Source: Escherichia coli
GTDB taxonomy: Bacteria; Pseudomonadota; Gammaproteobacteria; Enterobacterales; Enterobacteriaceae
DNA length: 64,000 bases
Reading direction: 5' to 3' (one strand)
Assembly (NCBI RefSeq): GCF_044324875.1
Contig: NZ_CP172185.1
The translations under genes and the position numbers were made by a program. Positions 2,907 to 13,730 of this stretch are shown piece by piece. The notes below the pieces were generated by a model. It was given only the letters and a program-made list of their open reading frames with translations. It did no database searches and was not told where the DNA came from. Position 1 is the stretch's first letter, and each line of letters starts with the position of its first letter.

Positions 2907-3476
2907 TTATATCTTCTTTATATCTAACACATCACCCTCCCATACTCGTTTAAATCTTGCTGCATTACTGGCTGTATATAATACCGTATGATGTATATTT
3001 CTGTGCCCTAAATAATCTTGTATTAGTCTGGTGTCTAACCCTTGATTAGCTAAAGCATACCCACAACCATGCCTAAGCATGTGAGGATGAATGTTAATAT
3101 TCATATTGTGACTATATTTCTTACACATCTTATACACATATTGTCTCGAGATTTTATTTCCTTGACAAGAAAGAAATAAAGAGTCTTCAAAAGGTTTTTT
3201 TACTATGTTATCACGTAGTGCTAGCCATTTTTTTAATAACAGAACAGTTTCTTTTTGCAGGGGATGTACTGTGGATAATCCATTTTTTAAACGCTTGATA
3301 TATATTGCTGACTCTGAAAAGTCAATGTCGCTAATCTTTAGTGCAATAAGCTCGCTTACCCTAAGGCCATGTACATATGCCATTTGTAACATGGCTTTAT
3401 CTCTAATTTCATTTTTTGAACCGTTGATGGCTTCAAAAAATAACAACCATTCACTATGAGTAATAAATTTGCGCAT
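2907..3476 (-). CDS. ipbA: FimB/FimE-family tyrosine site-specific recombinase (IpuA/IpbA-type)
   Basis: 189 aa with FimB/FimE hallmarks (HGLRVSEL, HPHMLRHGCGYALANQGLDTRLIQDYLGHRNIHHTVLYT). Which of the two adjacent recombinases is ipuA and which is ipbA cannot be settled from sequence alone. Confidence 0.45.
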   Translation of the reverse strand: MRKFITHSEWLLFFEAINGSKNEIRDKAMLQMAYVHGLRVSELIALKISDIDFSESAIYIKRLKNGLSTVHPLQKETVLLLKKWLALRDNIVKKPFEDSLFLSCQGNKISRQYVYKMCKKYSHNMNINIHPHMLRHGCGYALANQGLDTRLIQDYLGHRNIHHTVLYTASNAARFKRVWEGDVLDIKKI

Positions 3477-11800: not shown

Positions 11801-13730
11801 TAAATCGCTTTCCGGAGAAGGTTCAGTGGGTATATTGAACACCACTGATCTGACGCTTTCCGGGGATAACAGTAATTTCAGCGGTGAATTCCGTGTGCAG
11901 AAAGATGCTGCTCTGCGGGCTTCAGATGAAAAACACCTGGGCACCGGGCTGATTGACAGTGATGGTGTCACCTGGCTTACCGCCAGTGGAAACTGGTTAC
12001 TGAAGAATGATATTACTGGCTCCGGCGCTCTGGTGAAACAGGGGGCGGGTAATCTGATTATTAATCATGAGCTGACTTATACCGGTGATACCACGGTTGA
12101 GAATGGCGTTCTGATTGTCGGTGATGATTCAGTCACCCGTGCCGCTGGTGCGACGTTGTCAGGATCCAAAAACATTCATGTTCTTAATGGCGGCACACTG
12201 AGTGGGCTGGGGACCGTTTCGGGTCAGGTTAATAACCAGGGAACACTGGCATCACTGAATGCTCTCTCAGGTTATGAAACGGCAGAGGCGAGCAATTTTA
12301 CGGTTGGTTCACTGACCAATACCGGCGTCATTCGTCTGGCCGGTGGTAAGACAGGAAATACCCTGACCGTAAATGGCGATTACACCGGTGGCGGTACGTT
12401 AATTATCAATACCGTGCTGGGGGATGATACTTCTGCCACTGACAAACTGATTGTCACGGGTAACACCTCCGGTGATACCGGCGTGGTGGTGAATAATGTC
12501 CGGGGCCAGGGGGCTCAGACCGCTGACGGCATTGAGATTGTGCATGTCGGTGGGCATTCTGACGGTAACTTCAGACTGCAGAACCGTGCGGTGGCAGGGG
12601 CATGGGAATATTTCCTGCATAAAGGTAATGCGGGTGGTACTGACGGTAACTGGTATCTGCGTTCTGAATTGCCGCCAGAACCACAACCGCAGCCGCAGCC
12701 ACAACCGCAGCCACAGCCACACCCCACGCCGGATAAACCTGTACAGAAGGTCTATCGTCCGGAAGCGGGCTCTTATATTGCGAACATAGCGGCAGCCAAC
12801 ACGCTGTTCAACATCAGAATGCACGATCGTGAGGGGGAAACTTACTATACCGATGTGTTTACTGGTGAGAAGAAAGCAACAAGTATGTGGATGCGTCATA
12901 TCGGCGGTCATAATCGCTGGAAGGACAGCAGTTCACAGCTGAATACGCAAAGTAACCGTTATGTTGTGCAACTGGGTGGCAGCATTGCGCAATGGACTGA
13001 CGGTCAGGACCGTCTGCAACTGGGGATTATGGCCGGTTATGGAAATGAGAAGAGTTCCACGACATCCTCGCTTTCGGGATATAAATCTAAAGGTGCGATC
13101 AATGGATACAGCACCGGTTTATACGGAACGTGGCAGCAGAATGACGGTAATGACAACGGGGCTTATGTCGATACCTGGATCCAGTACGGATGGTTTAATA
13201 ATACCGTTAATGGTGAAAAACTGGCTGCGGAGTCCTGGAAATCCCGTGGATTTACCGGTTCAGTGGAAGCGGGTTATACCTTTAAAGCCGGCGAATTTAT
13301 CGGTAGCCAGGGTAGCCACTATGACTGGTATATTCAGCCGCAGTCCCAGATCACGTGGATGAATGTAAGAGCCAGTGAGCATACGGAGAAGAATGGCACG
13401 AAAGTTAAGCTCAGCGGAGACGGTAATATCCAGAGTCGTCTGGGCGTCAGAACTTACCTGAAAGGTAAGAGTGCGTCTGATGATAATAAGGCGCATCAGT
13501 TTGAGCCATTTGTGGAAGTTAACTGGATCCATAATACACGGAGCTGGGGTGTCAAAATGGATAATACGGCACTCAGTCAGGACGGAGCTACAAATATTGC
13601 TGAAGTCAAAACGGGTGTTCAGGGTAAATTGTCAGATAACCTGAGTGTCTGGGGCAATGTTGGTGTTCAGGCTGGCGATAAAGGGTACAGTGATGCCCAG
13701 GCAATGCTGGGTATTAAATATATATTCTAA
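5817..13730 (+). CDS. upaE: AIDA-I-type autotransporter adhesin (UpaE-like), 2637 aa
   Basis: Extended signal peptide (MNKIYKVIWNHTTQKWDVVSELT...), long Gly/Asn/Thr-rich repetitive passenger domain, PQ-repeat linker, C-terminal beta-barrel translocator ending ...GIKYIF. Confidence 0.85.
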   Translation: MNKIYKVIWNHTTQKWDVVSELTSCRKKCKSTRLGIALSAMVLGGAIAINCNNAMADVILSPDWRPGTNNSGVGAATVSGKTEYITGPNVVQSGGSGLIWMTVEQAILNGYTTGDNLSGLIYVNTGEKTKTITVKDEVTGASQTLQVFDTDSFSQRDAGTGGNETIPGFSGTADFFNATRFVTANNGGTAILDVGSPAIGNFFKNTQLAVADGEGSSVVWNSVNDFYFQPGATMQGGGVTQKIIDSMKYAGTITDWAGKVHHINSLDDLKQYNQYLIKSLEDKTLSYKQYDAEFNKALIVTKHNYNVDMTAGGRIDSTPYKENVGLLAVLHATNNARAILGKTGKLTGVLPAYGNGGGIVATNGGTGVNEGVIDAIGTEMIAYQDSTIVNDGTLFVWDNNDKYALQAEGMVAGSNGSSAINNGVINIRPFKNAFAPEGINTAIVVSNGGMATNKGTINITADASTNDNNGKTRGVNVGAGGSFINSAFGSINVGIAEDKTATHSAVGSVAIEVQNGANKVVNEGTIFLGRGAQGNYGILAKDAGTVDVVNKGNITIDGHDSDAPALNVGMLANNSSGMKNSGIINVNGLNSTGLQVINAGQLKSDGTINVGGKGISSGFRNYGAWVEGAGSNVNVSGKISLAGTGAVGVFAKDGGSLTLSGNGAVLFGSSDQIGFYVYGKDSAIHNTGSGVMDVSTENSTLFRIASGATFQGTADASSALTASGKNSYALIATGKSDGGVASTVTSGGMTINLTGEGATATLIEGGAQGTIESNAIINMDNASAIAGIADGNGYDISGKLINPKDKTTLLTAGAQLSSTQDKVTGYIARNGATLNNTGNIIFTGKNTVGVRVEEGAVGTNSGNITVQDGGVGLIANATQDVTTINNSGNLVLKGGDNANRTTGIKASGTTTTVNMTAGTISLQGQGAIGVEASNKGTVNLDGSAVPNFAADGSGITDQIAFRIIGDGATIKTNIAAGTLLDASGERSVLFRIEDGAKQAGSLLMKTSGTGSRGIWATGKGSNVLADAGSDFQILGAQAQGLYVTGGATATLKQGASVNLVGDGAVVAEVDGNEYALDGSITQTNTGSVITNEADISSPLNNAKGFITRNQGLLINSGNIDFTTGTDNIGVWVDNGRFENTGSSIAVNGVALFVEGEHAQITSTGGDIVAVDGEAAIKLGAGASLNLAGSGLGTIEGQKNAHGILLDTGAVGLVIDGAKINVNAAGAVGHGIENRAEIEGIQLTNTTEINVADGIGVRTSASLAKTNSGTINVDGSGIALAFQKADGSETDNNLDMSDSAGLVINLKGTGGTGIFANTKDGAVVKSGASVNVTQADGGSALVVNNAASEVVQSGNLISASLSHAVVDASKAQSFTNKGQIKAASATGTAMAFDDAVNTTVLNDSGAEIQGVVALNGGDNTFTNKGSITGTVSAKEGNNTFLFDDGSTLTGEVTAGNGNNNVTLNGKAHVDQVTAGTGKNTFTIKGEGATWNLLDGGQGDSDSLIFDNAIHTLDSVVKLQNFEHVGLKNSSLVTLKEALVLTDGGTGPGSVDIESGSELAIIPAVAGNFTFDPLLTGKGTLSARLDADTSAFEFSHNVGDQFAGTLKLGTSSFALEGLNTSGLTHAMLMSESGNITTVGSGVQQIGGLGLNGGTLIFGSVMPGDTIASNSIETSAAGTLDIRGKGTIQVTMPDEVINDIPAVDTRKNLLEQDDAQTLVTLVNAAGTVTGTGGQLQLVDENGQAISHSQTFDVTQGGEVVAQGNYDYKLLGSSDGIKGDGLYIGYGLKSLDLQGTGDKALVLTPRANAQGLQTDLGAQLTGAGDLAIEAAGQVVTLSNGGNNYTGDTLVRSGTLQMANDNVLGATGNLNVASNAVFRTNGYSQTVGVLQTETGSHIQLDSGSVLTVSGTQRQPGDDNGGVIENNVLSGEGTLAVTGSDLTVHGTNIGFTGNASLTQGALVEMNGAQGLGSQGSISFESLSDRLAIDIADGSGVSSNLSKSLSGEGSVGILNTTDLTLSGDNSNFSGEFRVQKDAALRASDEKHLGTGLIDSDGVTWLTASGNWLLKNDITGSGALVKQGAGNLIINHELTYTGDTTVENGVLIVGDDSVTRAAGATLSGSKNIHVLNGGTLSGLGTVSGQVNNQGTLASLNALSGYETAEASNFTVGSLTNTGVIRLAGGKTGNTLTVNGDYTGGGTLIINTVLGDDTSATDKLIVTGNTSGDTGVVVNNVRGQGAQTADGIEIVHVGGHSDGNFRLQNRAVAGAWEYFLHKGNAGGTDGNWYLRSELPPEPQPQPQPQPQPQPHPTPDKPVQKVYRPEAGSYIANIAAANTLFNIRMHDREGETYYTDVFTGEKKATSMWMRHIGGHNRWKDSSSQLNTQSNRYVVQLGGSIAQWTDGQDRLQLGIMAGYGNEKSSTTSSLSGYKSKGAINGYSTGLYGTWQQNDGNDNGAYVDTWIQYGWFNNTVNGEKLAAESWKSRGFTGSVEAGYTFKAGEFIGSQGSHYDWYIQPQSQITWMNVRASEHTEKNGTKVKLSGDGNIQSRLGVRTYLKGKSASDDNKAHQFEPFVEVNWIHNTRSWGVKMDNTALSQDGATNIAEVKTGVQGKLSDNLSVWGNVGVQAGDKGYSDAQAMLGIKYIF
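12675..12722 (+). repeat. CCGCAG-type hexanucleotide tandem repeat encoding a PEPQPQPQPQPQPQPHP linker
   Basis: ccagaaccacaaccgcagccgcagccacaaccgcagccacagccacac read directly in the sequence, in frame within the autotransporter. Confidence 0.9.

Follow-up and report, generated by a model that had tools for sequence, protein, structure and literature searches.

The ipu-upaE phase-variation system of uropathogenic Escherichia coli (UPEC), in which inversion of a short DNA element (ipuS) governs a giant autotransporter adhesin (UpaE), is known from the description of Battaglioli et al. 2018 (PMC6083910); Russell et al. 2019 (PMC6458436) have since re-examined it. Work with strain CFT073 has shown inversion of the element, a transcript found in ON cells only, surface display of UpaE, binding to extracellular-matrix proteins, reduced motility and an advantage in colonisation of the kidney (PMC6083910, PMC6458436). 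The locus is enriched in UPEC, being present in 37% of these strains versus 7% of commensals (PMC6083910). Here, a 64,000-nucleotide stretch of E. coli DNA (contig NZ_CP172185.1 of assembly GCF_044324875.1), referred to below as the window, was examined at positions 2907-13730, and this region is, with a probability of about 0.92, an intact copy of the published ipuA/ipuB-ipuS-ipuR-upaE locus in the OFF state. An original prediction made from the letters of the sequence had recognised the system, and the observation is correct but not new, since the system was published in 2018 and is routinely named by the NCBI pipeline. For the window itself the finding accordingly matters little, the locus, switch and adhesin having all been described in 2018 and annotated by name; what the present analysis adds is incremental, and consists of the exact boundaries of ipuS, the assignment of the OFF orientation, evidence for the ON state in nature, corrections and side observations.

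Identity and occurrence of the locus

The genes of the locus and its flanks are as follows.

1557-2510: dsdC, left flank
2907-3476, minus strand: ipuB, Fim-type tyrosine DNA invertase, 189 amino acids (aa)
4225-4854, plus strand: ipuA, Fim-type tyrosine DNA invertase, 209 aa, the full-length form of the OFF state
5172-5792, plus strand: ipuR, regulator whose N-terminal domain is receiver-like but atypical, with a GerE/LuxR-type helix-turn-helix (HTH), 206 aa
5817-13730, plus strand: upaE, type Va (AIDA-I-type) autotransporter adhesin, 2637 aa, calculated mass 269.8 kDa
30080-30154: argW (tRNA-Arg CCU), right flank

Between dsdC and a small gene at 13778-14308, the list of open reading frames (ORFs) comprises the four genes ipuB, ipuA, ipuR and upaE, and the coordinates 2907-13730 run exactly from ipuB to the stop codon of upaE. 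All five ORFs of the locus are intact, and the two Fim-type recombinases, switch, regulator and giant autotransporter of the original prediction were all located at the positions assigned to them. Direct comparison showed that positions 1-14764 of the window are collinear with CFT073 (NC_004431.1) at 98.2% DNA identity, with values of 99.5% for ipuB, 99.5% for ipuA, 97.8% for ipuS, 99.4% for ipuR and 98.4% for upaE; the IpuB proteins are identical, and those of IpuA and IpuR differ by 2 and 3 aa, respectively. The proposed gene order of the ipuA-ipuS-ipuR-upaE system therefore matches CFT073 in order, in sequence identity and in its flanks, and the locus lies, as had been suggested, between dsdC and the argW island. 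Homology to K-12 stops at 2484, inside the 3' end of dsdC, and resumes at 30079 (argW), so the locus is absent from K-12, again as originally supposed. The recombinase naming 'ipuA/ipbA' was half right: ipuA stands, whereas the second recombinase is ipuB, ipbA being another name for fimX/hbiF, which is found elsewhere, on PAI-X (PMC3203889).

Of 5426 complete E. coli genomes searched by megablast with 2907-13730 as query, 257 carry the locus; query coverage is at least 80% in 231 of these carriers, and 262 of the 263 match places are chromosomal. RefSeq labels in the matches name the tyrosine-type DNA invertases IpuB and IpuA, a helix-turn-helix regulator and a 'phase-variable autotransporter adhesin UpaE'. 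The carriers include duck, heron, cow, chicken, wastewater and environmental isolates, for example SMS-3-5. Since the literature gives enrichment only, and carriers come from such diverse sources, the locus is not diagnostic for ExPEC (extraintestinal pathogenic E. coli), and the view that it marks the strain as ExPEC-like was too strong.

Boundaries and orientation of ipuS

The elements of the switch were placed as follows.

4809-4815: ipuS distal 7-bp inverted repeat TGACCCA, inside the 3' end of the ipuA coding sequence, identical in CFT073 and conserved in the Salmonella loci
4816-5076: ipuS invertible segment in the OFF orientation, 261 bp between the repeats
5077-5083: ipuS proximal 7-bp inverted repeat TGGGTCA, ON/OFF breakpoint at query positions 853-859, identical in CFT073

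This is the sole repeat pair in the window that fits the published description. With its repeats, ipuS spans 4809-5083 (275 bp, 28% GC) and covers the last 46 nt of ipuA. The region put forward earlier for the switch, 4855-5250, extended too far on the right and failed to take in the left end, 40-46 nt within ipuA. Alignment to CFT073 ipuS, which had been proposed as a check, gave 269 identical positions out of 275, with the same repeats, spacing and orientation and with both repeats, their flanks and both half-sites identical, rather than the lack of identity on which the assignment would have fallen. In-silico inversion of 4816-5076 shortened IpuA from 209 to 198 aa, with the new C-terminus ...HFDPF. 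Since this is exactly the published outcome of inversion to ON, namely loss of 11 aa from IpuA and replacement of the terminal K with F (PMC6083910), the result supports the boundaries as fixed here.

The OFF orientation is that which encodes full-length IpuA (PMC6083910), and since the 209-aa full-length protein is encoded in the window, the window is OFF. The CFT073 reference is likewise in the OFF orientation and encodes full-length IpuA. As a consequence, most cells would not express UpaE. ipuS contains a single PacI site, asymmetrically placed, at 5053-5060, and a PacI site was used in the published orientation assay (PMC6458436); together with the repeat coordinates, it would permit an orientation PCR or a read-count assay on the strain. 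A search of the whole window for further half-sites with up to three mismatches turned up only the known right site, and thus no second switch is evident.

Inversion of ipuS in public assemblies

An exact-sequence look-up found the predicted 198-aa ON-state IpuA encoded verbatim on 15 public contigs, drawn from NCBI drafts, Logan assemblies and one ENA metagenome. The simulated ON sequence aligns over its full length (1076 nt), at 99.7-99.9% identity, to the contigs designated L014-L016. The OFF sequence of the window aligns to the same contigs as three pieces, of which that corresponding to 4809-5083 lies on the opposite strand, and the pieces overlap by exactly both 7-bp repeats; natural ON contigs break the OFF alignment exactly at the distal repeat (query positions 585-591). 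ipuS inverts in nature precisely at the 7-bp repeats and, since ON copies of the exact allele of the window are present in public assemblies, this includes the allele studied here.

Promoter, hairpin and leader

Three further features were placed inside or beside the switch.

4848-4875, minus strand: candidate ipuS promoter, with -35 TTTATA (complement of 4870-4875), a 16-nt spacer and -10 TATACG (complement of 4848-4853)
5016-5036, both strands: two-way terminator-like hairpin from a terminator scan, 8-bp stem with 5 G-C pairs and a T-run on both strands
5084-5171, plus strand: leader between the switch and ipuR, 88 nt, with an AGGAA motif resembling a Shine-Dalgarno sequence ahead of the ATG at 5172

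Published 5'-RACE (rapid amplification of cDNA ends) placed the transcription start inside the ipuA-coding part of ipuS, in ON cells only, downstream of -35 and -10 hexamers that each match 4 of 6 positions (PMC6083910). The candidate at 4848-4875 matches the consensus at 8 of 12 hexamer positions and fits this description of the placement; it also forms the block of the ipuS interior that is most conserved between E. coli and Salmonella diarizonae. From its position, the candidate promoter would read leftward in the OFF orientation and toward ipuR after inversion. A promoter scan returned 8 promoter-like sites compared with 12.6 in shuffled sequences, and since the shuffles give more, matches of this kind in the AT-rich region carry little weight. 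A separate promoter-like site on the plus strand at 5026-5053 (TTTACC-16-TATAGT), also inside ipuS, faces ipuR in the OFF orientation; its -10 element is better here than in CFT073, being TATAGT versus TGTAGT (A versus G at 5049).

The hairpin at 5016-5036 has fold energies of -14.8 and -13.3 kcal/mol on the two strands, with z-scores of -4.15 and -3.67, and is not mentioned in the ipuS paper (PMC6083910). The leader is 100% identical to that of CFT073, and its block GGGGATAACAGGAA..ATTGCATGG is kept in S. diarizonae. The gap between ipuA and ipuR is 317 bp in total. Comparison of positions 1-16000 of the window with Rfam at gathering thresholds gave no RNA families.

The recombinases and their targets

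With a score of 251.2 bits, IpuA exceeds the cut-off (221 bits) of the NCBIfam family NF007370 ('tyrosine-type DNA invertase'). The best NCBIfam match of IpuB is to the same family at 204.9 bits, under the cut-off; the protein is identical to the experimentally active IpuB of CFT073. The catalytic R-H-R-Y residues are intact in both proteins (R41/H138/R141/Y173 in IpuA, R39/H132/R135/Y167 in IpuB), in alignment columns that are invariant with K-12 FimB and FimE, to which IpuA and IpuB are 45-53% identical. The two genes diverge from an AT-rich region:

3477-4224: divergent ipuB-ipuA intergenic region, 27.9% GC

This region contains no ORFs of 60 aa or more in the ORF list and is 95.9% identical to that of CFT073, i.e. 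less conserved than the genes.

The kinship with FimB and FimE bears upon a reading in which IpuA and IpuB mainly flip the distant fimS element, with ipuS as a secondary target. IpuA does invert fimS, and recombinases are shared between ipuS, fimS and hyxS; in CFT073, FimE, FimX and, weakly, FimB also act on ipuS (PMC6083910, PMC6458436). The 10-mer GTCAAAATGG, which forms the left flank of the proximal ipuS repeat and is common to the right repeat region of K-12 fimS, fits this reported cross-activity of the Fim recombinases. Conversely, the switch is physically embedded in ipuA, and the layout of recombinase, switch, regulator and adhesin is kept in Salmonella loci, which argues that ipuS is the cognate target; moreover, genome-wide inversion mapping in CFT073 revealed no further targets (PMC6458436). 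A predominant role at fimS is therefore unlikely, although it would in any event be a role additional to the switching of ipuS and not an exclusive alternative to it.

Evidence bearing on function of the switch

A number of observations weigh against an intact locus that is actively switching. A synthetic ON query, comprising 4500-5400 with the segment inverted, was searched against complete E. coli genomes beside the native OFF query; the latter matched all 236 of the 236 genomes that hold the switch, and the former matched none of the 236 in one piece. Among public contigs the ON form of IpuA was found on 8 for the allele of the window and on 3 for that of CFT073, compared with at least 1000 for each OFF form, such that ON forms amount to ∼1% or less of OFF-form counts. 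Given the absence of ON from the complete genomes and the small number of ON-form contigs, cultured isolates rarely have ON as their consensus state. In addition, six positions in ipuS differ from CFT073, and the promoter scan, with a threshold of 9 of 12 hexamer positions, did not report the ipuS promoter. The A at 5049 might render the OFF state leaky in this lineage, or the site to which it belongs might be a chance match in AT-rich DNA. Finally, switching in the strain of the window itself would be an extrapolation from sequence.

Taken furthest, the scarcity of the ON form could denote that in this lineage the locus, although present, is in effect fixed in the OFF state and survives as a cryptic remnant, with no expression of its adhesin at any time. 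However, the five ORFs are intact and both recombinases keep their catalytic residues, the half-sites do not differ from those of CFT073, a strain shown to switch (PMC6083910, PMC6458436), and the ON assemblies encode exactly the truncated IpuA predicted from the allele of the window. The CFT073 reference is OFF too, and yet CFT073 flips. Permanent silencing is thus very improbable, and an intact, invertible locus captured in its OFF state is the preferred reading. More improbable still is control of ipuR-upaE by a terminator flip that blocks read-through from the ipuA promoter, a scheme suggested by the hairpin inside ipuS, since the T-run on both strands should stop read-through either way and the 5'-RACE start lies inside ipuS in ON cells only (PMC6083910). 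Indeed, the hairpin would be expected to leave the invertible promoter as the only driver of ipuR and upaE.

With the intact, invertible locus as the preferred reading, the following mechanism is proposed. IpuA and IpuB, supplemented in CFT073 by FimE, FimX and weakly FimB, would pair the repeats and invert the ipuS segment. In the OFF orientation seen here the ipuS promoter would face left into the end of ipuA, with IpuA made as the full-length 209-aa protein and with ipuR and upaE silent. After inversion, the promoter end would come to lie beside the right repeat and read via the 88-nt leader into ipuR and upaE and probably on into the small gene downstream of them, while ipuA would lose its last 11 codons and encode the 198-aa protein ending in F. 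The extended signal peptide of UpaE would then take the protein across the inner membrane, and the C-terminal β-barrel and autochaperone would display a passenger of ∼2100 aa at the cell surface as an adhesin.

The IpuR regulator

The regulator had been called 'LuxR-type', a term that holds for its C-terminal HTH, matched by Pfam GerE (PF00196) at residues 141-193 (7.2e-12), but not for the rest of the protein. Pfam gave no domain for residues 1-140, neither an autoinducer-binding domain nor Response_reg. A structural model built from an 11-sequence family alignment (pLDDT 78) has an N-terminal domain of alternating strands and helices, and Foldseek returned full-length matches to the NarL/FixJ-type response regulators StyR, FixJ, RcsB and EvgA (E 5e-7 to 1e-4, TM 0.35-0.49); SdiA structures align to the model over the HTH only (∼92 columns). 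With residue assignments that are approximate, the family alignment shows an invariant T5-T6 after strand 1, where receivers have acidic residues, an invariant D60 after strand 3 and an invariant LLPVFPD motif. On the strength of the model, IpuR is best described as an atypical response-regulator-like protein with a NarL/FixJ-like fold, and its residues suggest that it is probably phosphorylation-independent. An autoinducer-binding LuxR protein, as implied by the discussion in the ipuS paper (PMC6083910), was also considered and was set aside given the lack of an N-terminal domain match and the alignment of SdiA at the HTH only.

The start of ipuR differs between RefSeq records, being the ATG at 5172 in CFT073 (206 aa) versus 5250 in the PGAP annotation of strain T-HYM1 (180 aa). 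Since the first 17 residues and the upstream AGGAA motif are conserved with the Salmonella orthologue, the start at 5172 is supported; it is also that of the ipuS paper (PMC6083910).

UpaE and the downstream gene

The calculated mass of UpaE compares with a reported value of 271 kDa (PMC6083910). The protein carries an ESPR extended signal region at residues 1-43, and PATR repeats, an AC_1 autochaperone and a PF03797 β-domain were found in the fragment translated from 10134-13730. TIGR01414 matches residues 2177-2637 (4e-119), and there are strong matches to AIDA-I-type adhesins. Relative to the window, upaE of CFT073 has a 36-bp expansion of a PQ repeat and two single-base insertions (window positions 12680, 12790 and 12824); RefSeq flags the CFT073 gene as frameshifted, whereas the window copy is one intact ORF of 2637 aa.

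Two features follow upaE.

13738-13762, plus strand: stem-loop between upaE and the next gene, 11-bp stem without a T-run, -24.3 kcal/mol, z-score -3.6
13778-14308, plus strand: small membrane-anchored gene, possibly OmpH/Skp-like, 176 aa, beginning 47 nt past upaE

The stem-loop was not called as a terminator by the terminator scan. The gene at 13778-14308, which is not mentioned in the ipuS paper (PMC6083910), is named 'OmpH family outer membrane protein' in the CFT073 RefSeq record; its product matches Pfam OmpH weakly (E=0.004), and PF03938 is precomputed on several homologues. The model of the product has an N-terminal transmembrane helix followed by a long helical hairpin, in the order of elements expected of the Skp fold. 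Skp (1u2m_B) is among the top Foldseek matches with a TM score of 0.64 but an E value of 1.0, which is without significance, and because the fold search gave no significant match the Skp/OmpH assignment is left tentative. Homologues of the gene adjoin UpaE orthologues in three different regulatory contexts, and this conserved linkage suggests that its product may be a functional partner of UpaE and, possibly, that the gene forms a third member of the phase-variable unit.

The genomic island and its surroundings

The island and the feature at its right end are as follows.

2485-14742: ipu-upaE genomic island, PAI-argW type, 43.5% GC, delimited by the end of K-12 homology and by CFT073 collinearity to 14764
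14745-14764: argW 3' end in a degenerate copy, marking the right boundary of the island and forming the far att site of an inserted element

The island is listed as PAI-CFT073-argW (PMC7545054). On the left, K-12 homology ends 26 nt before the dsdC stop codon, and dsdC has 317 codons (954 nt) here versus 311 (936 nt) in K-12, so that the junction of the island falls within the end of this gene. Of the genes compared with CFT073, dsdC is also the least conserved, at 95.7%. On the right, the att comparison sets ATGGTGTCCCTGCAGAAATC at 14745-14764 against ATGGTGTCCCCTGCAGGAATC from 30080; in CFT073 an intact argW is found at the position equivalent to 14745-14764 and directly adjoins the island.

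In the window a 15.3-kb integrative element, absent from CFT073, has been inserted at argW (14765-30077), where it is bounded by argW and the degenerate argW 3'-end copy. Its cargo includes a P4-type integrase (28639-29943), an Icd-like protein, an 897-aa primase-like protein, a second tyrosine recombinase, a P2-family capsid-like protein and a copy of IS21 (18345-20763). This site is occupied by an unrelated lambdoid prophage in T-HYM1, which is the closest complete genome, and by CPS-53 in K-12. The element was compared with both and has no detectable DNA similarity to either; it is a different, P4-like element.

Related loci in Salmonella and Escherichia

A full orthologous unit is present in S. 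diarizonae (L005:265-10337), comprising a recombinase, ipuS, IpuR (65% identical), UpaE (85%) and the partner gene (63%). Its switch has the same core repeats 262 bp apart, with half-sites conserved over ∼30 nt, and its ON-state recombinase is predicted to end ...HFDPF. In a second E. coli variant (L010), the IpuR-like protein is 54% identical and the TGACCCA...TGGGTCA pair is kept, with the left arm inside the recombinase gene. In a Salmonella enterica locus (L011:4549-12666, GCA_007694625.1) the 7-bp core repeats recur unchanged at 5127 and 5422, again with the left arm inside the recombinase gene. Next, 3' of the switch, come a CaiF/GrlA-like gene, the gene for an IpuR-like regulator that is 33% identical, and that for a giant inverse autotransporter of the intimin/invasin type.

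A different arrangement was observed in Escherichia sp. (L008:700-11200, GCA_004212315.1), which has an UpaE orthologue (82% identical) and the partner gene (79%). Upstream of UpaE, divergent genes for PapI-like (FaeA) and PapB-like regulators stand in place of the recombinases and ipuS, and an unrelated 128-aa GerE protein follows the pair. Phase variation by Pap-type methylation was considered for this locus and is not claimed, the intergenic region between the PapI- and PapB-like genes having one GATC and not the classical pair.

These loci raise the prospect, for which the odds are about even, that the ipuS-type switch is a portable phase-variation cassette of Escherichia and Salmonella, rather than a peculiarity of UPEC, that has been coupled to different classes of giant adhesin. 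The cassette itself would, on an equally balanced judgement, consist of a TGACCCA...TGGGTCA pair 259-288 bp apart, with the left arm in a recombinase gene, and an IpuR-like atypical receiver-HTH regulator; location of the left arm inside that gene means that flipping also rewrites the tail of the recombinase. On this reading the cargo differs between loci: both E. coli and S. diarizonae have a type Va autotransporter, and another Salmonella enterica has an intimin/invasin-type inverse autotransporter. UpaE, for its part, travels with a small, possibly Skp-like partner and, in one Escherichia lineage, stands under regulators of the PapB/PapI family and not an invertase. The Salmonella switches of the ipuS type, the small partner gene 3' of upaE and IpuR as an atypical response regulator are the points by which the published picture could be extended.

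Comparison with known systems

Among the systems with which the locus may be compared is Ag43 (flu), likewise a phase-variable AIDA-I-type autotransporter adhesin of E. coli, which differs in being switched via Dam methylation and OxyR, without DNA inversion (PMC6083910). The T1 antigen switch of Salmonella (STM0716) shares a FimB-like recombinase beside an invertible promoter that serves a surface structure, but has 9-bp repeats, a polysaccharide biosynthesis cluster as cargo and no IpuR-like regulator (PMC11294581). By description, fimX-hyxS-hyxRAB (upaB) of PAI-X has the same layout of Fim-type recombinase, invertible promoter, LuxR-like regulator and autotransporter (PMC3789825, PMC11294581); it differs, also by description, in its location on another island, its 16-bp repeats, the extra regulator hyxA and the action of FimX only (PMC6083910). 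The fimB/fimE-fimS-fimA system has in common with the present locus the recombinase family, the R-H-R-Y residues, promoter inversion of a segment of ∼300 bp and GTCAAAATGG in the right half-site. Conversely, fimS has 9-bp repeats (TTGGGGCCA) and a length of 314 bp, does not overlap a recombinase gene, and controls a chaperone-usher fimbria as opposed to an autotransporter.

The closest counterpart is the ipu-upaE system of CFT073. Differences from it include six substitutions in ipuS, the lack in the UpaE of the window of a 12-aa PQ-repeat unit and of two single-base insertions, and the presence here of the 15.3-kb P4-like element with IS21 between the island and argW, where CFT073 has nothing. 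In gene order, dsdC and argW att flanks, 7-bp repeats, switch length, OFF orientation and domain content, the two are the same.

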